Shown: positions 1,770-56,546 of the stretch, piece by piece
How positions within the stretch are numbered: the first letter of the stretch is position 1
Layout of the letters: every line of letters begins with the position of its first letter
Assembly (NCBI RefSeq): GCF_003790525.1
Contig: NZ_CP033635.1
Origin: Escherichia coli
GTDB taxonomy: Bacteria > Pseudomonadota > Gammaproteobacteria > Enterobacterales > Enterobacteriaceae
DNA length: 64,000 nucleotides
Strand: one strand, 5' to 3'
Made by a program: the position numbers and the translations under genes
Notes under the pieces: generated by a model
Databases searched by the model: none
What the model saw: only the letters and a program-made list of their open reading frames with translations
What the model was told of the DNA's origin: nothing

Positions 1770-1903
1770 TGAGGGTTGAGCGGGGTTTCCCCCGCCCTGG
1801 TAGTCTTAGTAAGCCGGGAAGCTTATGACTAAGAGCACCACGATGATGATCCACTTCATCATGACCCTTTCCTTATTTATGGCCCCTTCCTCGGGAGGGG
1901 CTT
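1770..1903 (+). ncRNA. Sib-type antisense sRNA (antitoxin), third copy; ends approximate
   Basis: Promoter TTGACA (1735-1740) - 17 bp - TACTTT (1758-1763); hairpin plus T-run at about 1873-1903. Confidence 0.55.
1806..1862 (-). CDS. Ibs-family type I toxin peptide, third copy (18 aa, MMKWIIIVVLLVISFPAY)
   Basis: Hand translation of the minus strand inside the third repeat unit; same family signature. Confidence 0.75.
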   Translation of the reverse strand: MMKWIIIVVLLVISFPAY

Positions 1904-2069
1904 TCCCGTTTCAGCGTCCCGCTGAAATCGTCGGCTTACCTCCTTTCGCCATGCAAGCAGTCTATCGCTAACGCGTAGATAAAATAGTTTCCTGTGTTAT
2001 TACTGGATGCGTGCTCGCAAATGTGCCCGCCATTCAGACGATTCCCGATAGTGTTTCATAATTCCTCCA

Positions 2070-2087
2070 TTTTTCTCCCTTATTGGC
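2070..2087 (+). promoter_or_regulatory. BaeR box upstream of mdtA
   Basis: TTTTTCTCCCTTATTGGC matches the published BaeR consensus TTTTTCTCCATDATTGGC at 17 of 18 positions, about 55 bp upstream of the mdtA start. Confidence 0.6.
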
Positions 2088-2140
2088 TGGCTACACTAGT
2101 ATCATTCCGCGAAACGTTTCAGGAAGAGAAACTCTTAACG

Positions 2141-3388
2141 ATGAAAGGCAGTTATAAATCCCGTTGGGTAATCGTAATCGTGGTGGTTATCGCCGCCATC
2201 GCCGCATTCTGGTTCTGGCAAGGCCGCAATGACTCCCAGAGTGCAGCCCCAGGGGCGACGAAACAAGCGCAGCAATCGCCAGCGGGTGGTCGCCGTGGTA
2301 TGCGTTCCGGCCCATTAGCCCCGGTTCAGGCGGCGACCGCCGTAGAACAGGCAGTTCCGCGTTACCTCACCGGGCTTGGCACCATTACCGCTGCTAACAC
2401 CGTTACGGTGCGCAGCCGCGTAGATGGTCAGTTGATGGCGTTACATTTCCAGGAAGGCCAGCAGGTCAAAGCAGGCGATTTACTGGCAGAAATTGACCCC
2501 AGCCAGTTCAAAGTTGCATTAGCACAAGCCCAGGGCCAACTGGCAAAAGATAAAGCCACGCTTGCCAACGCCCGCCGTGACCTGGCGCGTTATCAACAAC
2601 TGGTAAAAACCAATCTCGTATCTCGTCAGGAACTGGATGCCCAACAAGCGCTGGTCAGTGAAACCGAAGGCACCATTAAGGCTGATGAAGCAAGCGTCGC
2701 CAGCGCACAGCTGCAACTCGACTGGAGCCGCATCACCGCACCAGTCGATGGTCGCGTTGGTCTCAAGCAGGTTGATGTTGGTAACCAAATCTCCAGTGGT
2801 GATACCACCGGAATTGTGGTGATCACCCAGACGCATCCTATCGATTTGCTCTTTACCCTGCCGGAAAGCGATATCGCTACCGTTGTGCAGGCGCAAAAAG
2901 CCGGAAAACCGCTGGTGGTAGAAGCCTGGGATCGCACCAACTCGAAGAAATTAAGTGAAGGCACGCTGTTAAGTCTCGATAACCAAATCGATGCCACTAC
3001 CGGTACGATTAAAGTGAAAGCACGCTTTAATAATCAGGATGATGCGCTGTTTCCCAATCAGTTTGTTAACGCGCGCATGTTAGTCGACACCGAACAAAAC
3101 GCCGTAGTGATCCCAACAGCCGCCCTGCAAATGGGCAATGAAGGCCATTTTGTCTGGGTACTGAATAGCGAAAACAAGGTCAGCAAACATCTGGTGACGC
3201 CGGGCATTCAGGACAGTCAGAAAGTGGTGATCCGCGCAGGTATTTCTGCGGGCGATCGCGTGGTGACAGACGGCATTGATCGCCTGACCGAAGGGGCGAA
3301 AGTGGAAGTGGTGGAAGCCCAGAGCGCCACCACTCCGGAAGAGAAAGCCACCAGCCGCGAATACGCGAAAAAAGGAGCACGCTCCTGA
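2141..3388 (+). CDS. mdtA: RND efflux membrane fusion protein MdtA (415 aa)
   Basis: ORF 1994-3388 trimmed to ATG at 2141 ([14 protein letters not shown]...); periplasmic adaptor-like sequence; stop overlaps the mdtB start (TGATG). Confidence 0.9.
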
Positions 3389-6300
3389 TGCAGGTGTTAC
3401 CCCCGAGCAGCACAGGCGGCCCGTCGCGCCTGTTTATTATGCGTCCTGTGGCCACCACGCTGCTGATGGTGGCGATCTTACTCGCCGGGATTATCGGTTA
3501 TCGCGCCCTGCCCGTTTCGGCGCTGCCGGAAGTGGACTATCCGACCATTCAGGTGGTCACGCTCTACCCAGGTGCGAGCCCGGATGTCATGACCTCTGCC
3601 GTTACCGCGCCGCTCGAACGCCAGTTCGGGCAGATGTCTGGTCTGAAACAGATGTCGTCGCAAAGTTCCGGCGGTGCGTCAGTTATCACTTTGCAGTTCC
3701 AGCTAACATTACCGCTGGATGTCGCCGAGCAGGAAGTACAGGCCGCGATTAACGCTGCGACCAACTTGTTGCCGAGCGATCTGCCTAACCCGCCGGTTTA
3801 CAGCAAAGTGAACCCGGCAGATCCGCCGATCATGACGCTCGCCGTCACCTCAACAGCCATGCCGATGACGCAAGTGGAAGATATGGTGGAAACCCGCGTC
3901 GCGCAGAAAATCTCGCAGATTTCCGGCGTCGGCCTGGTGACGCTTTCCGGCGGCCAGCGTCCGGCTGTTCGCGTCAAACTTAACGCTCAGGCGATTGCCG
4001 CCCTCGGCCTGACCAGCGAAACCGTGCGCACCGCCATTACCGGCGCTAACGTTAACTCGGCAAAAGGTAGCCTCGACGGCCCTTCCCGCGCGGTTACGCT
4101 TTCCGCGAATGACCAAATGCAATCTGCGGAAGAATATCGCCAGTTGATTATCGCCTACCAGAACGGCGCGCCGATTCGTCTGGGCGATGTCGCAACTGTA
4201 GAGCAAGGTGCAGAAAACAGCTGGCTCGGCGCATGGGCGAACAAAGAACAGGCCATTGTGATGAATGTTCAGCGCCAGCCCGGTGCTAACATTATCTCCA
4301 CCGCCGACAGCATCCGGCAGATGCTGCCACAGCTCACCGAGAGTTTGCCGAAATCGGTGAAGGTGACGGTACTTTCTGACCGTACCACCAATATCCGCGC
4401 ATCTGTCGATGATACTCAGTTTGAATTGATGATGGCTATCGCGCTGGTAGTCATGATTATCTACCTGTTTTTGCGCAATATTCCGGCGACCATCATTCCC
4501 GGTGTTGCCGTGCCGCTGTCGTTAATCGGCACTTTTGCGGTTATGGTGTTTCTCGATTTTTCAATCAATAACCTGACACTGATGGCGTTAACTATCGCCA
4601 CCGGATTCGTGGTCGATGACGCCATCGTGGTGATCGAAAACATTTCCCGCTATATCGAAAAAGGCGAAAAACCGTTGGCGGCGGCGCTCAAGGGCGCAGG
4701 TGAAATCGGCTTTACCATTATCTCGCTGACCTTCTCACTGATTGCGGTGTTGATCCCACTGCTGTTTATGGGCGATATCGTCGGGCGACTGTTCCGCGAA
4801 TTTGCTATTACCCTGGCGGTAGCGATTTTGATCTCAGCGGTGGTGTCGCTGACCCTGACACCGATGATGTGCGCGCGGATGCTCAGCCAGGAGTCGTTGC
4901 GTAAACAGAACCGCTTCTCCCGTGCCTCGGAAAAAATGTTCGACAGGATAATCGCCGCCTATGGTCGTGGACTGGCGAAAGTGCTGAATCATCCGTGGCT
5001 GACCTTAAGCGTGGCACTCAGCACGCTGCTGCTTAGCGTGCTGCTGTGGGTGTTCATTCCGAAAGGTTTCTTCCCGGTACAGGACAATGGCATTATTCAG
5101 GGCACTTTGCAGGCACCGCAATCCAGCTCCTTTGCCAATATGGCCCAGCGACAACGCCAGGTCGCGGACGTGATTTTGCAGGATCCGGCAGTGCAAAGCC
5201 TGACCTCATTTGTTGGCGTTGATGGCACTAACCCGTCGCTGAACAGTGCACGTTTACAAATCAACCTCAAACCGTTGGATGAACGTGATGATCGGGTGCA
5301 AAAAGTCATCGCCCGTCTGCAAACGGCGGTAGATAAAGTGCCGGGCGTCGATCTCTTCCTGCAACCAACGCAGGATCTGACTATTGATACTCAGGTCAGC
5401 CGCACCCAGTACCAGTTTACCTTGCAGGCCACGTCACTGGATGCGCTCAGTACCTGGGTGCCACAGTTGATGGAAAAACTCCAGCAACTGCCACAGCTTT
5501 CTGATGTCTCCAGCGACTGGCAGGACAAAGGGCTGGTGGCGTATGTCAATGTTGATCGCGACAGCGCCAGCCGTCTGGGGATCAGCATGGCGGATGTCGA
5601 TAACGCCCTGTACAACGCGTTTGGTCAGCGGCTGATTTCCACTATTTATACTCAGGCCAACCAGTATCGCGTGGTGCTGGAGCACAACACCGAAAATACC
5701 CCAGGCCTCGCGGCGCTGGATACCATTCGCCTGACCAGCAGCGACGGCGGCGTGGTGCCGCTAAGCTCAATTGCCAAAATTGAGCAGCGTTTTGCGCCGC
5801 TCTCCATCAACCATCTGGATCAGTTCCCGGTAACGACCATCTCCTTTAACGTGCCGGATAACTATTCGCTGGGCGATGCGGTGCAGGCGATTATGGACAC
5901 CGAAAAGACGCTGAATCTGCCGGTGGATATCACCACGCAGTTCCAGGGCAGCACCCTCGCCTTCCAGTCGGCGCTGGGCAGCACTGTCTGGCTGATTGTC
6001 GCGGCGGTGGTGGCGATGTATATCGTGCTCGGCATTCTGTACGAGAGCTTTATTCACCCGATCACCATTCTCTCGACGCTACCCACCGCAGGGGTTGGCG
6101 CACTGCTGGCGTTGCTGATTGCTGGTAGCGAACTGGATGTGATTGCGATTATCGGCATTATTTTGCTGATCGGTATCGTGAAGAAGAACGCCATCATGAT
6201 GATCGACTTCGCGCTGGCTGCCGAGCGCGAGCAAGGCATGTCGCCGCGCGAGGCAATCTACCAGGCTTGTCTGTTGCGTTTTCGTCCGATCCTGATGACC

Positions 6301-6510
6301 ACCCTGGCGGCTCTGCTTGGCGCGCTGCCGCTGATGTTGAGTACCGGGGTCGGCGCGGAACTGCGTCGTCCGTTAGGTATCGGCATGGTCGGCGGCCTGA
6401 TTGTCAGCCAGGTGCTGACGCTGTTCACCACGCCGGTGATTTATCTGCTGTTCGACCGCCTGGCATTGTGGACCAAAAGCCGCTTTGCCCGTCATGAAGA
6501 GGAGGCGTAA
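3388..6510 (+). CDS. mdtB: RND multidrug efflux transporter MdtB (1040 aa)
   Basis: 1040-aa ORF with 12-TM RND architecture, a paralog of the next ORF. Confidence 0.95.
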
Positions 6511-9500
6511 GTGAAGTTTTTTGCCCTCTTCATTTACCGTCCGGTGGCGACGATTTTACTGTCGGTTGCCATTACCCTGTGCGGCATACTGGGCTTCCGT
6601 ATGCTGCCGGTCGCCCCGCTGCCGCAGGTCGATTTTCCGGTGATTATGGTCAGCGCCTCGCTGCCCGGTGCGTCACCAGAAACAATGGCGTCTTCCGTTG
6701 CCACGCCGCTGGAGCGCTCACTTGGGCGCATTGCCGGAGTCAGTGAAATGACCTCCAGCAGTTCGCTCGGCAGCACGCGTATTATTTTGCAGTTTGATTT
6801 TGACCGGGATATCAACGGCGCAGCGCGTGATGTGCAGGCGGCGATCAACGCTGCACAAAGTTTGCTGCCCAGTGGGATGCCCAGCCGCCCGACCTATCGC
6901 AAAGCGAACCCGTCGGATGCGCCAATTATGATCCTCACGCTGACGTCCGATACTTATTCGCAGGGTGAACTGTACGATTTCGCCTCGACGCAGCTGGCTC
7001 CGACGATTTCGCAAATCGACGGTGTTGGTGATGTCGATGTCGGAGGCAGCTCACTGCCCGCCGTACGCGTCGGGCTGAATCCGCAGGCGCTGTTTAATCA
7101 GGGCGTGTCGCTGGACGACGTACGCACCGCCGTCAGCAATGCCAACGTGCGTAAACCGCAGGGCGCGCTGGAAGATGGCACTCACCGCTGGCAGATCCAG
7201 ACCAATGATGAGCTAAAAACCGCCGCTGAATATCAGCCGTTGATTATTCACTACAACAACGGCGGCGCGGTTCGTCTGGGCGATGTGGCGACGGTGACCG
7301 ACTCAGTGCAGGATGTGCGCAACGCCGGGATGACCAACGCCAAACCGGCTATTTTACTGATGATCCGCAAACTGCCGGAAGCCAATATTATCCAGACGGT
7401 TGACAGCATCCGGGCAAAATTACCGGAGTTGCAGGAAACCATTCCGGCGGCGATTGATCTGCAAATTGCCCAGGATCGCTCCCCCACCATTCGCGCCTCG
7501 CTGGAAGAAGTCGAGCAAACGCTGATTATCTCGGTGGCGCTGGTGATTCTGGTGGTGTTTTTATTCCTGCGCTCGGGTCGCGCCACTATTATTCCCGCCG
7601 TTTCGGTGCCGGTTTCGCTGATTGGTACGTTTGCGGCGATGTACCTGTGCGGATTCAGTCTCAATAACCTTTCGTTAATGGCGCTCACCATCGCTACTGG
7701 TTTCGTGGTGGATGACGCCATCGTGGTGCTGGAAAACATTGCACGTCATCTGGAAGCGGGAATGAAACCGTTGCAAGCCGCACTGCAAGGTACTCGCGAA
7801 GTCGGTTTTACGGTGCTGTCGATGAGTCTGTCACTGGTGGCGGTGTTCCTGCCGCTGCTGTTGATGGGCGGATTGCCGGGCCGACTGTTACGCGAATTTG
7901 CCGTGACGCTTTCTGTCGCCATTGGTATATCGTTGCTGGTTTCTCTGACATTAACGCCAATGATGTGTGGCTGGATGCTGAAAGCCAGCAAGCCGCGCGA
8001 GCAAAAGCGACTGCGTGGTTTTGGTCGCATGTTGGTAGCCCTGCAACAAGGCTACGGCAAGTCACTGAAATGGGTGCTCAATCATACCCGTCTGGTGGGC
8101 GTGGTGCTGCTTGGCACCATTGCGCTGAATATCTGGCTGTATATCTCGATCCCGAAAACCTTCTTCCCGGAGCAGGACACTGGCGTGTTGATGGGCGGGA
8201 TTCAGGCGGATCAGAGTATTTCGTTTCAGGCGATGCGCGGTAAGTTGCAGGATTTCATGAAAATTATCCGTGACGATCCGGCAGTGGATAATGTCACCGG
8301 CTTTACAGGCGGTTCGCGAGTGAACAGCGGGATGATGTTTATCACCCTCAAGCCACGCGACGAACGCAGCGAAACGGCGCAGCAAATTATCGACCGTCTG
8401 CGCGTAAAACTGGCGAAAGAACCGGGGGCGAATCTGTTCCTGATGGCGGTACAGGATATTCGCGTTGGTGGGCGTCAGTCGAACGCCAGCTACCAGTACA
8501 CGTTGTTATCCGACGACCTGGCGGCACTGCGAGAATGGGAGCCGAAAATCCGCAAAAAACTGGCGACGTTGCCGGAACTGGCGGACGTGAACTCCGATCA
8601 GCAGGATAACGGCGCGGAGATGAATCTGGTTTACGACCGCGACACCATGGCACGGCTGGGAATCGACGTACAAGCCGCCAACAGTCTGTTAAATAACGCC
8701 TTCGGTCAGCGGCAAATCTCGACCATTTACCAGCCGATGAACCAGTATAAAGTGGTGATGGAAGTGGATCCGCGCTATACCCAGGACATCAGTGCGCTGG
8801 AAAAAATGTTCGTTATCAATAACGAAGGCAAAGCGATCCCGCTGTCGTATTTCGCTAAATGGCAACCGGCGAATGCCCCACTATCGGTGAATCATCAGGG
8901 ATTATCGGCGGCCTCGACCATTTCGTTTAACCTGCCGACCGGAAAATCGCTCTCGGACGCCAGTGCGGCGATCGATCGCGCAATGACCCAGCTTGGTGTG
9001 CCTTCGACGGTGCGCGGCAGTTTTGCCGGCACGGCGCAGGTGTTCCAGGAGACGATGAACTCGCAGGTGATCCTGATTATCGCCGCCATCGCCACGGTGT
9101 ATATCGTGCTGGGTATCCTTTACGAGAGTTACGTACATCCGCTGACGATTCTCTCCACCCTGCCCTCGGCGGGCGTTGGAGCGCTGTTGGCGCTGGAGCT
9201 GTTCAATGCCCCGTTCAGCCTAATCGCCCTGATAGGGATCATGCTTTTAATCGGCATCGTGAAGAAAAACGCCATTATGATGGTCGATTTTGCGCTTGAA
9301 GCCCAACGGCACGGTAACCTGACGCCGCAGGAAGCTATTTTCCAGGCCTGTCTGCTGCGTTTTCGCCCGATTATGATGACTACCCTGGCGGCGCTGTTTG
9401 GTGCGCTGCCGCTGGTATTGTCGGGCGGCGACGGCTCGGAGCTGCGGCAACCCCTGGGGATCACCATTGTCGGCGGACTGGTAATGAGCCAGCTCCTTAC

Positions 9501-9588
9501 GCTGTATACCACGCCGGTGGTGTATCTCTTTTTCGACCGTCTGCGGCTGCGTTTTTCGCGTAAACCTAAACAAACGGTAACCGAGTAA
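6511..9588 (+). CDS. mdtC: RND multidrug efflux transporter MdtC (1025 aa), GTG start
   Basis: 1025-aa ORF immediately after mdtB; RND family. Confidence 0.95.
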
Positions 9589-11004
9589 ATGACAGATCTT
9601 CCCGACAGCACCCGTTGGCAATTGTGGATTGTGGCTTTCGGCTTCTTTATGCAGTCGCTGGACACCACCATCGTAAACACCGCCCTTCCCTCAATGGCGC
9701 AAAGCCTCGGGGAAAGTCCGTTGCATATGCACATGGTCATTGTCTCTTATGTGCTGACCGTGGCGGTGATGCTGCCCGCCAGCGGCTGGCTGGCGGACAA
9801 AGTCGGCGTGCGCAATATTTTCTTTACCGCCATCGTGCTGTTTACTCTCGGTTCACTGTTTTGCGCGCTTTCCGGCACGCTGAACGAACTGTTGCTGGCA
9901 CGCGCGTTACAGGGCGTTGGCGGCGCGATGATGGTGCCGGTCGGCAGATTGACGGTGATGAAAATCGTACCGCGCGAGCAATATATGGCGGCGATGACCT
10001 TTGTCACGTTACCCGGTCAGGTCGGTCCGCTGCTCGGTCCGGCGCTCGGCGGTCTGCTGGTGGAGTACGCATCGTGGCACTGGATCTTTTTGATCAACAT
10101 TCCGGTGGGGATTATCGGTGCGATCGCCACATTGCTGTTAATGCCAAACTACACCATGCAGACGCGGCGCTTTGATCTCTCCGGATTTTTATTGCTGGCG
10201 GTTGGCATGGCGGTATTAACCCTGGCGCTGGACGGCAGTAAAGGTACAGGTTTATCGCCGCTGACGATTGCAGGCCTGGTCGCAGTTGGCGTGGTGGCAC
10301 TGGTGCTTTATCTGCTGCACGCCAGAAATAACAACCGTGCCCTGTTCAGTCTGAAACTGTTCCGTACTCGTACCTTTTCGCTGGGCCTGGCGGGGAGCTT
10401 TGCCGGACGTATTGGCAGTGGCATGTTGCCCTTTATGACACCGGTTTTCCTGCAAATTGGCCTCGGTTTCTCGCCGTTTCATGCCGGACTGATGATGATC
10501 CCGATGGTGCTTGGCAGCATGGGAATGAAGCGAATTGTGGTACAGGTGGTGAATCGCTTTGGTTATCGTCGGGTACTGGTAGCGACCACGCTGGGTCTGT
10601 CGCTGGTCACCCTGTTGTTTATGACTACCGCCCTGCTGGGCTGGTACTACGTTTTGCCGTTCGTCCTGTTTTTACAAGGGATGGTCAACTCGACGCGTTT
10701 CTCCTCCATGAACACCCTGACGCTGAAAGATCTCCCGGACAATCTGGCGAGCAGCGGCAACAGCCTGCTGTCGATGATTATGCAATTGTCGATGAGTATC
10801 GGCGTCACTATCGCCGGGCTGTTGCTGGGACTTTTTGGTTCACAGCATGTCAGCGTCGACAGCGGCACCACACAAACCGTCTTTATGTACACCTGGCTTA
10901 GCATGGCGTTGATCATCGCCCTTCCGGCGTTCATCTTTGCCAGAGTGCCGAACGATACGCATCAAAATGTAGCTATTTCGCGGCGAAAAAGGAGCGCGCA
11001 ATGA
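9589..11004 (+). CDS. mdtD: MFS transporter MdtD (471 aa)
   Basis: 471-aa polytopic membrane protein; start abuts the mdtC stop (TAAATG); stop overlaps the baeS start (ATGA). Confidence 0.9.
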
Positions 11005-12404
11005 AGTTCTGGCGACCCGGTATTACCGGCAAACTGTTTCTGGCGATTTTCGCCACCTGCATTGTCTTGCTGATCAGTATGCACTGGGCGGTGCGTATCA
11101 GTTTTGAGCGTGGCTTTATTGATTACATCAAGCATGGTAATGAACAGCGATTACAACTGTTAAGTGATGCGCTTGGCGAGCAGTATGCGCAGCATGGCAA
11201 CTGGCGCTTCCTGCGCAACAATGATCGCTTTGTCTTTCAGATCCTGCGTTCATTTGAACACGATAATTCGGAAGATAAACCCGGCCCGGGTATGCCACCG
11301 CACGGCTGGCGTACCCAGTTCTGGGTGGTTGATCAAAACAACAAAGTGCTGGTTGGTCCGCGAGCGCCGATTCCACCTGACGGTACACGGCGACCCATTC
11401 TGGTCAACGGTGCGGAAGTTGGCGCGGTGATCGCCTCCCCCGTTGAGCGGTTAACGCGCAATACTGATATCAATTTCGATAAACAACAGCGGCAAACCAG
11501 CTGGTTGATTGTCGCCCTGGCAACGTTACTCGCGGCACTTGCCACTTTTCTGCTGGCGCGCGGTTTACTGGCACCGGTAAAACGACTTGTCGATGGCACG
11601 CACAAACTGGCGGCGGGCGATTTCACTACCCGCGTAACGCCCACCAGTGAAGATGAACTGGGCAAACTGGCGCAAGACTTCAACCAGCTTGCCAGCACAC
11701 TGGAGAAAAACCAGCAAATGCGGCGCGATTTTATGGCCGATATTTCTCACGAACTGCGTACGCCATTAGCGGTGCTGCGCGGTGAACTGGAAGCCATTCA
11801 GGATGGCGTGCGTAAATTCACGCCGGAGACGGTGGCGTCTTTACAGGCGGAGGTCGGTACACTGACCAAACTGGTTGACGATCTCCATCAGTTGTCGATG
11901 TCTGATGAAGGCGCTCTCGCCTATCAAAAAGCACCGGTAGATTTGATCCCACTGCTGGAAGTGGCGGGCGGCGCATTTCGCGAACGATTCGCCAGTCGTG
12001 GCCTGAAACTGCAATTTTCCCTGCCAGACAGTATTACCGTATTTGGCGATCGCGACCGTTTAATGCAGTTATTCAATAACTTACTGGAAAACAGCCTGCG
12101 CTACACTGACAGCGGCGGCAGCCTGCAAATCTCTGCCGGGCAGCGCGACAAAACGGTGCGCCTGACCTTTGCCGACAGTGCGCCAGGTGTCAGTGACGAT
12201 CAGCTACAAAAATTGTTTGAACGTTTTTATCGCACCGAAGGTTCCCGCAACCGTGCCAGCGGCGGTTCCGGGCTGGGGCTGGCGATTTGCCTGAACATTG
12301 TTGAAGCACATAATGGTCGCATTATTGCTGCCCATTCGCCTTTTGGCGGGGTAAGCATTACAGTAGAGTTACCGCTGGAACGGGATTTACAGAGAGAAGT
12401 ATGA
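11001..12404 (+). CDS. baeS: Sensor histidine kinase BaeS (467 aa)
   Basis: Two TM segments, HAMP, H-box (ISHELRTPL) and ATPase G-boxes (GGSGLGLAI). Confidence 0.95.
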
Positions 12405-13123
12405 CCGAGTTACCAATCGACGAAAACACACCGCGTATTTTGATCGTGGAAGATGAACCGAAGCTGGGGCAGTTGCTCATTGATTATCTGCGTGCTGCGA
12501 GCTATGCGCCGACGCTTATCAGCCACGGCGATCAGGTACTGCCGTATGTGCGCCAGACACCACCGGATCTGATCCTGTTAGATCTGATGCTCCCTGGCAC
12601 CTATGGCCTGACGCTGTGCCGGGAAATTCGTCGTTTTTCTGACATTCCGATCGTGATGGTGACGGCAAAAATCGAAGAGATCGATCGCCTGCTGGGGCTG
12701 GAGATTGGCGCAGATGATTATATCTGTAAGCCGTACAGCCCACGGGAAGTGGTAGCGCGCGTCAAAACCATTTTGCGCCGTTGCAAACCGCAGCGCGAGT
12801 TGCAGCAACAGGATGCTGAAAGCCCGTTGATTATCGACGAAGGTCGTTTTCAGGCTTCATGGCGCGGTAAAATGCTTGACCTGACGCCTGCGGAATTTCG
12901 TCTGCTGAAAACGCTCTCTCACGAACCAGGAAAAGTGTTTTCCCGCGAGCAATTGCTCAATCATCTTTATGACGACTACCGCGTAGTAACCGACCGCACC
13001 ATCGACAGCCACATTAAAAACCTGCGCCGCAAGCTGGAATCTCTCGACGCCGAACAGTCATTTATCCGCGCCGTTTATGGCGTCGGTTACCGCTGGGAAG
13101 CCGACGCCTGCCGCATCGTTTAG
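12401..13123 (+). CDS. baeR: OmpR-family response regulator BaeR (240 aa)
   Basis: Receiver domain ([10 protein letters not shown]) plus winged-helix C-terminus; start overlaps the baeS stop. Confidence 0.95.
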
Positions 13124-13313: not shown

Positions 13314-13646
13314 ATGGCTGGTTGGTTTGAACTCAGTAAGAGCAGTGATAATCAGTTCCGGTTTGTGCTAAAAGCGGGCAATGGTGAGACTATCCTCACC
13401 AGCGAGCTTTATACCTCAAAAGCCTCTGCGGAAAAGGGCATCGCGTCGGTGCGTAGCAACAGCCCGCAAGAAGAACGCTATGAGAAAAAAACGGCAAGTA
13501 ACGGCAAATTCTATTTCAATCTGAAAGCCGCTAATCATCAAATTATCGGCTCCAGCCAGATGTACGCCACCGCGCAATCTCGTGAAACCGGAATTGCCTC
13601 CGTTAAAGCCAATGGCACAAGCCAGACGGTGAAAGACAATACGTAA
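13314..13646 (+). CDS. yegP: DUF1508/UPF0339 protein YegP (110 aa) with internal tandem duplication
   Basis: ORF 13275-13646 trimmed to ATG at 13314 after GGAG; two repeated halves (FRFVLKAGNGETI...GIASVRSN and KFYFNLKAANHQII...GIASVKAN). Confidence 0.85.
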   Translation: MAGWFELSKSSDNQFRFVLKAGNGETILTSELYTSKASAEKGIASVRSNSPQEERYEKKTASNGKFYFNLKAANHQIIGSSQMYATAQSRETGIASVKANGTSQTVKDNT

Positions 13647-13792
13647 TTACGATGCCGGGCGTGGGTTGTTGGCGTCCGGCGCTTTACCAGATCCCCCCAC
13701 AGCGCTACAATGCCCGCCCTTAAAGTGGGGGCACTCCCCTAACCGCTTCATCAGGTGAAGCGGATCTGACCTGTCATCAGAACGAGAGAATT

Positions 13793-15154
13793 ATGTTTAA
13801 ACCGGAACTCCTTTCCCCGGCGGGAACGCTGAAAAATATGCGTTACGCTTTCGCTTATGGCGCAGATGCTGTTTATGCGGGCCAGCCGCGTTACTCCCTG
13901 CGTGTGCGCAACAACGAATTCAACCACGAAAATCTTCAGCTCGGCATCAATGAAGCCCACGCGCTGGGGAAAAAGTTTTATGTCGTGGTCAACATTGCAC
14001 CGCACAACGCCAAGCTGAAAACCTTTATCCGTGACCTGAAACCGGTGGTGGAAATGGGGCCGGATGCGCTGATTATGTCCGATCCAGGGCTGATTATGCT
14101 GGTGCGTGAGCACTTCCCTGAAATGCCGATCCACCTCTCGGTGCAGGCTAACGCCGTAAACTGGGCGACGGTGAAATTCTGGCAGCAAATGGGCCTGACC
14201 CGCGTGATCCTCTCTCGCGAGCTGTCGCTGGAAGAGATTGAAGAGATCCGCAATCAGGTGCCGGATATGGAGATCGAGATCTTCGTTCACGGCGCACTGT
14301 GCATGGCCTACTCCGGTCGCTGCCTGCTCTCTGGCTATATCAACAAGCGCGATCCGAACCAGGGTACCTGCACCAACGCCTGCCGCTGGGAGTACAACGT
14401 CCAGGAAGGGAAAGAAGATGACGTTGGCAACATCGTACACAAGTACGAGCCGATTCCGGTGCAAAATGTTGAGCCGACGCTGGGTATCGGCGCGCCAACC
14501 GACAAAGTGTTTATGATCGAAGAAGCCCAGCGTCCGGGCGAGTATATGACCGCGTTTGAAGATGAGCACGGCACTTACATCATGAACTCGAAAGATCTGC
14601 GCGCCATCGCCCATGTAGAACGCCTGACCAAAATGGGCGTGCATTCGCTGAAAATCGAAGGCCGTACTAAATCTTTCTACTATTGCGCACGCACCGCACA
14701 GGTTTACCGTAAAGCTATCGATGACGCCGCTGCGGGCAAACCGTTCGATACCAGCCTGCTGGAAACTCTGGAAGGTCTGGCGCATCGTGGCTATACCGAA
14801 GGTTTCCTGCGTCGTCATACTCACGACGATTATCAGAACTACGAATACGGTTATTCAGTTTCTGACCGCCAGCAGTTTGTTGGTGAGTTTACCGGTGAGC
14901 GCAAGGGGGACCTCGCGGCGGTAGCGGTGAAAAATAAATTCTCCGTTGGCGACAGCCTTGAGCTGATGACGCCGCAAGGCAACATTAACTTTACCCTTGA
15001 GCACATGGAAAACGCCAAAGGTGAAGCGATGCCGGTCGCACCAGGCGATGGTTATACTGTGTGGCTCCCGGTCCCGCAGGATCTTGAGCTCAATTACGCT
15101 CTGCTGATGCGTAATTTCTCCGGGGAAACCACGCGTAACCCACACGGTAAGTGA
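13793..15154 (+). CDS. yegQ: Peptidase U32 family protein YegQ/TrhP (453 aa)
   Basis: 453-aa ORF, U32-type sequence with Cys-rich C-terminal half; position after yegP. Confidence 0.9.
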   Translation: MFKPELLSPAGTLKNMRYAFAYGADAVYAGQPRYSLRVRNNEFNHENLQLGINEAHALGKKFYVVVNIAPHNAKLKTFIRDLKPVVEMGPDALIMSDPGLIMLVREHFPEMPIHLSVQANAVNWATVKFWQQMGLTRVILSRELSLEEIEEIRNQVPDMEIEIFVHGALCMAYSGRCLLSGYINKRDPNQGTCTNACRWEYNVQEGKEDDVGNIVHKYEPIPVQNVEPTLGIGAPTDKVFMIEEAQRPGEYMTAFEDEHGTYIMNSKDLRAIAHVERLTKMGVHSLKIEGRTKSFYYCARTAQVYRKAIDDAAAGKPFDTSLLETLEGLAHRGYTEGFLRRHTHDDYQNYEYGYSVSDRQQFVGEFTGERKGDLAAVAVKNKFSVGDSLELMTPQGNINFTLEHMENAKGEAMPVAPGDGYTVWLPVPQDLELNYALLMRNFSGETTRNPHGK

Positions 15155-15238
15155 TTAATTTCGATTATTTTTCCCGGATGGAAAATTCTTAGAAACCGAT
15201 CACATACAGCTGCATTTATTAAGGTTATCATCCGTTTC

Positions 15239-15325
15239 GCTGAAAAACATAACCCATAAAATGCTAGCTGTACCAGGAACCACCTCCTTAGCCTGTGTAA
15301 TCTCCCTTACACGGGCTTATTTTTT
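15239..15325 (+). ncRNA. cyaR: CyaR (RyeE) Hfq-dependent sRNA
   Basis: GCTGAAAAACATAACCCATAAAATGCTAGCTGTACCAGGAACCACCTCCTTAGCCTGTGTAATCTCCCTTACACGGGCTTATTTTTT matches the CyaR sequence as remembered; ends in a hairpin (GTGTAATCTCCCTTACAC) plus T-run; a -10-like TATCAT lies about 8 bp upstream. Confidence 0.8.
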
Positions 15326-36039: not shown

Positions 36040-36145
36040 GCAATGACCTGGTGGTCCGTGACTTCCCTACGCTGGCATTATCCAGATCAGGTGATACGGG
36101 TATTTCTCAGCCTTCACGCAGAAGGGCACCCCGAGTCGTTTGGTT
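36040..36145 (-). ncRNA. TPP (thi-box) riboswitch in the thiMD leader; ends approximate
   Basis: Minus strand reads GGGGTGCCCTTCTGCGTGAAGGCTGAGAAATACCCGTATCACCTGATCTGGATAATGCCAGCGTAGGGAA, containing the conserved CTGAGA and ACCTGATCTGGATAATGCCAGCG elements of the thiM riboswitch. Confidence 0.85.
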
Positions 36146-56348: not shown

Positions 56349-56516
56349 TATACTCTAAATAATTCAAATTGGTCCGATCCGGCGCAACGTCCCAATGGCC
56401 TGGATTATAAATCTCATTATCTTAATTGCAACGGGGTCCAGCCGTGGTTATAATTCGTTCGTTGGAACACGATGTTGCACAGGCTGTGGTGTTAGGCCTG
56501 AAAATAGTAAATAAAA

Positions 56517-56546
56517 GAACCTGCCTCACCAGCAGGTTTTTTTATT
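56517..56546 (+). terminator. Intrinsic terminator downstream of yehK
   Basis: CCTGC-CTCACCA-GCAGG followed by TTTTTTT. Confidence 0.75.

Follow-up and report, generated by a model that had tools for sequence, protein, structure and literature searches.

The 18-mer TTTTTCTCCCTTATTGGC at positions 2070-2087 (plus strand) of the 64,000-nt stretch of E. coli DNA analyzed here (the window) is very probably the box that BaeR binds in the mdtA promoter, and the orthologue of the characterized K-12 site, and positive autoregulation of the mdtABCD-baeSR operon through this promoter is well supported. The assignment builds on the match to the published BaeR consensus, on the identity to K-12, and on the position of the box inside a K-12 BaeR ChIP-exo peak (peak_5). 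The box acts as the switch by which envelope stress turns on MdtABC, an efflux pump for multiple drugs and metals, and also amplifies the BaeSR system that senses it. This role is textbook knowledge for E. coli K-12, and the mdtA box found here is an already known site, one of the four classical BaeR sites. As the window repeats this site base for base, it reveals nothing new for the present strain.

In two later papers, the BaeR consensus TTTTTCTCCATDATTGGC is credited to Nishino et al. 2005 (PMC3799227, PMC3915751), and a CTNCA core is described as common to BaeR sites (PMC3799227). The consensus is an exact merger of the K-12 boxes at spy (TTTTTCTCCATAATTGGC), acrD (TTTTTCTCCACGATTGGC) and mdtA (TTTTTCTCCCTTATTGGC). 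The box in the window agrees with it at 17 of 18 positions, the sole mismatch being C for A at position 10, a score that is partly circular because the consensus is made by merging the K-12 boxes and the 18-mer is itself the K-12 mdtA box. A scan of both strands of the 64 kb, allowing up to 3 mismatches, returned 2070-2087 as the only match and thus no second BaeR box in the window; shuffled sequence yields 0.19 matches at this threshold, and at up to 1 mismatch the base composition predicts 2.7e-4 matches per window. The original prediction of a 17/18 BaeR-box match upstream of mdtA is confirmed. The first base of the box is 71 nt upstream of the mdtA ATG (2141). The K-12 spy and acrD boxes resemble that of mdtA in that 15 of 18 positions are invariant (T5-CTCC-N3-ATTGGC), and each of the three has a C/T-rich CTCC-like element 10-11 nt upstream. 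They differ in the distance from box to start codon (spy -156, acrD -88, mdtA -71) and in the spacing to the candidate -10, with 4 nt in mdtA, whereas spy and acrD have a similar hexamer at 14 nt.

In K-12 MG1655, the orthologous position (2153945-2153962) carries the identical 18-mer at the same distance from mdtA (yegM) and with the same mdtABCD-baeSR genes downstream. The K-12 site is attributed to Nishino et al. 2005 and to Baranova and Nikaido 2002 in three papers (PMC3799227, PMC3915751, PMC2731931), the last of which includes the mdt-bae operon among the only four BaeR sites reported in E. coli. The window and K-12 show zero differences from 2050 through the mdtA ATG. What differs is limited to the upstream context, i.e., single-base changes at the three positions 2030, 2046 and 2049, and three Sib/Ibs modules where K-12 has two (sibA and sibB).

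Occupancy and expression figures for K-12 were taken from Data Sets S2, S3 and S5 of PMC7657598. The two strongest BaeR ChIP-exo peaks in the K-12 genome are both located upstream of mdtA (PMC7657598). Peak_5 (K-12 2153931-2153967, S/N 11) is equivalent to 2056-2092 in the window; it contains the box and its center, 2074, falls on the junction of the repeats R2 and R3 described below. Peak_6 (K-12 2153972-2153998, S/N 15) is equivalent to 2097-2123, the presumed -10 and start zone. The borders of such peaks are approximate, and the spy peaks flank the spy box and do not cover it. Deletion of baeR in K-12 treated with 5% ethanol reduced mdtA, mdtB, mdtC, mdtD and baeS by log2 3.4-4.6, with log2 values of -4.0 for mdtA, -3.8 for mdtB, -3.6 for mdtC and -4.6 for baeS (PMC7657598). 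Induced mdtA was thus reduced 16-fold, while unstimulated mdtA was unaffected by the deletion (log2 +0.07; PMC7657598).

The box is also strongly conserved within E. coli. A 301-nt query around it was present in 5416 of 5426 complete genomes and was 100% identical in O157:H7, O145 and O111 strains. Of the 5417 matching E. coli records, 5279 (97.5%) agree at every base of the 61-nt segment 2050-2110, whereas just 2022 of 5110 (40%) do so over the neighboring non-coding 61 nt at 1989-2049. Two variant alleles were inspected; one alters the degenerate D position of the box, and the other has two changes, in a single T of the T-run and at 2105. A consensus match by itself is no proof of function, but the probability that 2070-2087 is a functionless chance resemblance is negligible, considering the expectation of just 2.7e-4 matches per window, the location at precisely the orthologous position that is occupied in K-12, and the near-invariance across 5,400 genomes. 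A chance match was rejected on these grounds. Regarding the neighboring segment, the allele that the window carries at 1989-2049 is common to about 40% of E. coli records. K-12 and most other genera have CCAGACAGT across 2046 and 2049, compared with CCCGATAGT in the window, and the T at 2049 is a C in nearly all genera.

Downstream of the box, six intact and co-oriented ORFs abut or overlap each other on the plus strand, with the regulator genes last, and all of them score above equivalog or subfamily cut-offs. They encode the RND periplasmic adaptor MdtA (2141-3388; NCBIfam NF008589, 722 bits against a cut-off of 391, and K-12 annotation), the RND permeases MdtB (3388-6510) and MdtC (6511-9588) and the MFS transporter MdtD (iceT, 9589-11004), which all pass their NCBIfam cut-offs, followed by the sensor histidine kinase BaeS (11001-12404; NF007837, 930 bits against 603) and the OmpR/PhoB-family response regulator BaeR, the box-binding protein (12401-13123; NF007982, 447 bits against 380). 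The BaeR of the window also matches the PhoB and AdeR models below their cut-offs, which is consistent with homology. The autoregulation of mdtABCD-baeSR that had been suggested earlier fits these data. It is well supported because BaeR occupancy and BaeR-dependent induction are documented in K-12, the six-gene operon is intact, and no second box is present. A search for the CpxR box GTAAA-N5-GTAAA in 1900-2145 gave no match at up to 2 mismatches and two matches at 3 mismatches, and an mdtA peak is absent from the K-12 CpxR ChIP-exo table (PMC7657598).

The start of mdtA was set to the ATG at 2141 by comparison with K-12 and with the RefSeq annotation of a near-identical genome, giving a protein of 415 aa. 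The ORF list instead places a GTG start at 1994, which is a longest-ORF artefact spanning both promoter and box. We rejected this 464-aa ORF (1994-3388) as an extended MdtA, as the start in K-12 and RefSeq is the ATG equivalent to 2141 and the cross-genus conservation upstream of it is promoter-like and not codon-like.

This conservation was examined in mdtA loci from 80 species by aligning the 130 nt upstream of the start, which gave 79 distinct enterobacterial sequences. Among these 79 promoters, the block at 2031-2074 is near-invariant (CATTCAGAC..TCC.GACAGT.TT(T/C)CATA(A/T)TTCCTCCATTTTT), and so is the block at 2091-2106 (CTA(A/C)ACTAGTATCATT; CTACACTAGTATCATT on the plus strand of the window), which we regard as a core-promoter block. 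The stretch between them, 2075-2090, is almost constant in length and variable in sequence except in Escherichia and Citrobacter, and it includes the 3' part of the 18-mer, CTCCCTTATTGGC. This layout, two near-invariant blocks around a variable spacer of nearly fixed length, is what an activator site together with a -10 element should produce. For most of the remaining genera, the highest-scoring match to the consensus is shifted about 10 nt upstream, onto TTCCTCCAT.

Within the upstream block, the plus-strand segment TTTCATAATTCCTCCATTTTT (2054-2074) holds two CTCCAT-like repeats, which we call R1 (TTTCAT, 2054-2059; TTCCAT in most genera) and R2 (CTCCAT, 2065-2070), spaced by 11 nt. A third repeat core, R3 (CTCCCT, 2075-2080), is found 10 nt after R2 and inside the published 18-mer. 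R1 to R3 are short, and their tentative assignment relied on visual inspection and analogy; weaker T(T/C)CAG elements are seen at 2033 and 2043. The remaining part of the block, CATTCAGACGATTCCCGATAGTG (2031-2053, plus strand), has a -35-like TTCAGA at 2033-2038 and may hold additional regulator half-sites or be another promoter. Conservation across Enterobacteriaceae ends abruptly at about 2030, and two CAGAC-type repeats lie 10 nt apart in 2031-2053.

Repeats of a similar kind are bound by homologous OmpR/PhoB-type regulators of RND pump operons, namely AdeR (Acinetobacter) and DzrR (Dickeya, Burkholderia). The AdeR co-crystal site, AAGTGTGGAG-N-AAGTGTGGAG, corresponds to CTCCAC with an 11-bp period on the opposite strand (PMC5766154), and the DzrR footprint protects CGGTTCTCCATCATATCTCCATATT, i.e., CTCCATC-N4-CTCCAT (PMC10052836). 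Both are thus CTCCAC or CTCCAT direct repeats with the 11-bp period of R1-R2, and by this analogy R1 and R2 are putative BaeR half-sites. However, the regulators differ as proteins (the AdeR model, with a cut-off of 340, gives the BaeR of the window 152 bits), the ATTGGC tail found in the E. coli box is missing from the AdeR and DzrR sites, and the R2-R3 spacing is 10 bp compared with 11 bp at those sites.

The pho box of PhoB is made up of direct repeats in tandem, with a period near 11 bp; they lie over the -35 element or take its place, and they stop about 10 nt short of the -10. The mdtA promoter resembles this arrangement: if the -10 is TACACT, the cores of R2 and R3 would, by our calculation, be at most 1 nt from the pho-box core positions. 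The half-sites differ, being CTGTCAT in the pho box and CTCCAT-like here, as does the spacing (11 bp compared with 10 bp for R2-R3). BaeR is not known to contact region 4 of sigma-70.

Two hexamers are candidates for the -10 element, TACACT at 2092-2097, which is preceded by a conserved C, and TAGTAT at 2097-2102. We consider TACACT the likelier one, because the conserved C at 2091 followed by TA(C/A)ACT comes directly after the variable spacer. The transcription start would then likely be at about 2104-2110, and the box probably overlaps the candidate -35 region with either hexamer. In published K-12 maps, the sole 5' end assigned to mdtA by Kim 2012 is inside sibA, 646 nt upstream (PMC3415461), and an mdtA transcription start is absent from the list of Adams 2021 (PMC7815308).

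A possible course of activation is as follows. Envelope stress (indole, ethanol, copper, zinc, tannins) would activate the kinase BaeS, which results in phosphorylated BaeR. As a winged-helix regulator of the OmpR/PhoB family, BaeR might bind head-to-tail on the CTCCAT-like repeats 10-11 bp apart, at about 2062-2087, a position that would overlap the -35 and the spacer of a weak sigma-70 promoter with TACACT or, less likely, TAGTAT as its -10. The bound protein may stand in for a good -35 element and recruit RNA polymerase, as PhoB does at pho boxes. A transcript starting at about 2104-2110 would run through mdtA-mdtB-mdtC-mdtD-baeS-baeR, so that the regulator boosts its own synthesis. Within this scheme, the half-site assignment, the choice of -10, the start site and the PhoB-like recruitment are all inferred.

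The cross-genus comparison suggests that the published 18-mer spans just part of the conserved promoter element and that its ATTGGC half is restricted to one lineage, which matters for the prediction of BaeR regulons outside Escherichia. The mdtA promoters of Enterobacter and Klebsiella, for example, have neither R3 nor ATTGGC (2082-2087 in the window). Since 2075-2090 is unconserved outside Escherichia and Citrobacter, the published box may not be the ancestral or the sole recognition element. Tentatively, the BaeR consensus might even be mis-centered, the ancient pan-enterobacterial element being the phased CTCCAT-like direct repeats of the AdeR/DzrR type at 2033-2074, and the ATTGGC-bearing 18-mer being a younger Escherichia/Citrobacter addition in the -35/-10 spacer. 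If so, BaeR half-sites would have been replaced from genus to genus within an unchanged promoter frame. A related reading, which refines the main explanation and does not replace it, is that the R1-R2 pair (2054-2074, an 11-bp CTCCAT-type repeat centered at about -41) is the ancestral and principal BaeR dimer site, and that the 18-mer mainly provides a third, promoter-proximal half-site in the spacer of Escherichia and Citrobacter. This is possible but doubtful. It agrees with the near-invariance of R1-R2 in 79 of 79 promoters against the variation of 2075-2090 outside Escherichia and Citrobacter, with the slide of the consensus match by about 10 nt onto R2 in most other genera, and with the 11-bp spacing shared with the AdeR and DzrR sites. 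In addition, a CTCCAY core is found 27 nt before TACAGT in K-12 acrD and before TACACT in spy, just as R2 is 27 nt before TACACT in mdtA, but the TACACT of spy is probably no promoter element, as a much better TTGACG-16-TAATCT is present downstream. Against this reading, the T5 and ATTGGC flanks recur in three unrelated E. coli promoters, which argues for their recognition, and K-12 peak_5 begins at 2056, inside R1, with its center on R2/R3 rather than R1/R2. Because the peak center is at 2074 and the flanks recur at spy and acrD, we favor occupancy of R2 and R3 in E. coli, i.e., of the published box and the half-site just upstream of it.

The conserved upstream block might alternatively be read as a second, BaeR-independent promoter with -35 TTCAGA (2033-2038), -10 CATAAT (2057-2062) and a start at about 2069, which would place the box at about +1 to +18 and leave BaeR binding to also modulate this promoter. 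We consider this unlikely. The pair is the sole sigma-70-like match in a promoter scan of 900-2300, but shuffled sequence gives as many matches (mean 1.0). Both hexamers are conserved across genera with nearly fixed spacing, which regulator half-sites would explain equally well. Basal mdtA expression in K-12 is indeed BaeR-independent, with a change of log2 +0.07 in unstimulated cells, but uninduced K-12 is without a reported transcription start nearby (PMC3415461), and the polymerase-like ChIP-exo peak is further downstream, at 2097-2123.

Transcription from the neighboring Sib/Ibs array is another potential influence on mdtA. The window contains, in tandem, three type I toxin-antitoxin modules of the Sib/Ibs kind, which span 1069-2021 and have their starts at 1069, 1405 and 1733. 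Their Sib RNAs match Rfam RF00113 on the plus strand at 1071-1219, 1407-1549 and 1735-1877 (138-150 bits against a gathering score of 56), the third one (137.6 bits) being nearest to mdtA and oriented in its direction. A Sib promoter has its -35 at 1736-1741. Each match has an antisense Ibs ORF of 18-19 aa, which places the modules in the Sib/Ibs family; the ORF at 1145-1204 is identical to IbsA, that at 1478-1534 is identical to IbsB, and that at 1806-1862 (minus strand) is a variant, MMKWIIIVVLLVISFPAY, with two residues different from IbsB. The repeat unit is 328 nt, and homology to the last unit extends to about 2021, 49 nt before the box. An exact third copy (at least 99% identity) was found in 272 of the 5347 E. 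coli records with a match, and the same three Ibs toxins are annotated in RefSeq strain E2863. Downstream of the last Sib, window and K-12 share one layout, and nothing there is particular to the window.

How far the array is from the box, a distance stated originally as about 100 bp, depends on the item counted. The dominant 3' end of K-12 SibB by Term-seq (2153749, score 487,446; PMC7815308) is equivalent to 1874, 196 nt before the box; the Rfam match ends at 1877 (193 nt), and the annotated sibB end is equivalent to 1906 (164 nt). The transcription start of K-12 ibsB maps to 1952 on the minus strand (PMC3415461), about 118 nt upstream of the box, with a promoter extending to about 2003 and transcription directed away from mdtA; the repeat homology, as given above, comes as close as 49 nt. 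Past the main Sib 3' end, a GC-rich 9-bp hairpin followed by UUUCCCGUUU (1881-1902, plus strand, -17.8 kcal/mol) is a predicted second barrier to plus-strand read-through. Term-seq also reports a weak orphan plus-strand 3' end at K-12 2153897, with a threshold-level score of 789-1217 (PMC7815308), which is equivalent to 2022, 48 nt before the box. Inside mdtA, a Rho-dependent termination region is reported at K-12 2154517 (PMC7815308), equivalent to 2642. The reads downstream of it are 20 without bicyclomycin and 139 with it (PMC7815308), and as its upstream counting window overlaps sibB, this says little about the source of the transcript. Apparently, mdtA receives some transcription that does not depend on BaeR and is terminated early.

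A material effect of Sib/Ibs transcription on mdtA, either by Sib read-through or by interference from the divergent ibs promoter, is on this basis very unlikely. Sib RNAs are abundant and directed towards mdtA, the weak 3' end equivalent to 2022 shows that some K-12 transcripts pass the Sib terminators, and the Rho-dependent region implies that some transcription enters mdtA, where it is normally cut short. On the other hand, two hairpins are in the path, and the distal 3' end amounts to about 0.2% of SibB (789-1217 compared with 487,446), which is near the reporting floor. As that end precedes the box by 48 nt, the majority of these transcripts, too, do not extend to the box. In addition, ibs transcription begins about 118 nt before the box and proceeds away from mdtA, mdtA induction is BaeR-dependent, and none of the papers searched links Sib/Ibs with mdtA. 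The read-through or interference proposed earlier therefore receives little support, given the main Sib 3' end 196 nt upstream and the orientation of ibs; it is conceivable, but it would be small and no different from that in K-12.

Elsewhere in the window, the small RNA CyaR (RyeE) is found at 15237-15322 (plus strand; Rfam RF00112, 100.7 bits), and a TPP riboswitch at 36047-36143 (minus strand; RF00059, 71.2 bits), upstream of thiM-thiD by comparison with E2863. An antitoxin small RNA of the OrzO-P family at 56468-56543 (plus strand; RF02083, 99.9 bits) shows that the window also has a type I toxin-antitoxin locus of another kind; the zorO-orzO system was reportedly described from O157:H7. 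Finally, a 146-nt gap separates an ORF ending at 13646 from a yegQ-sized ORF starting at 13793. Strain E2863, which is identical to the window around mdtA, has a ParD/ParE toxin-antitoxin pair between yegP and yegQ, and the two therefore differ at 13646-13793.
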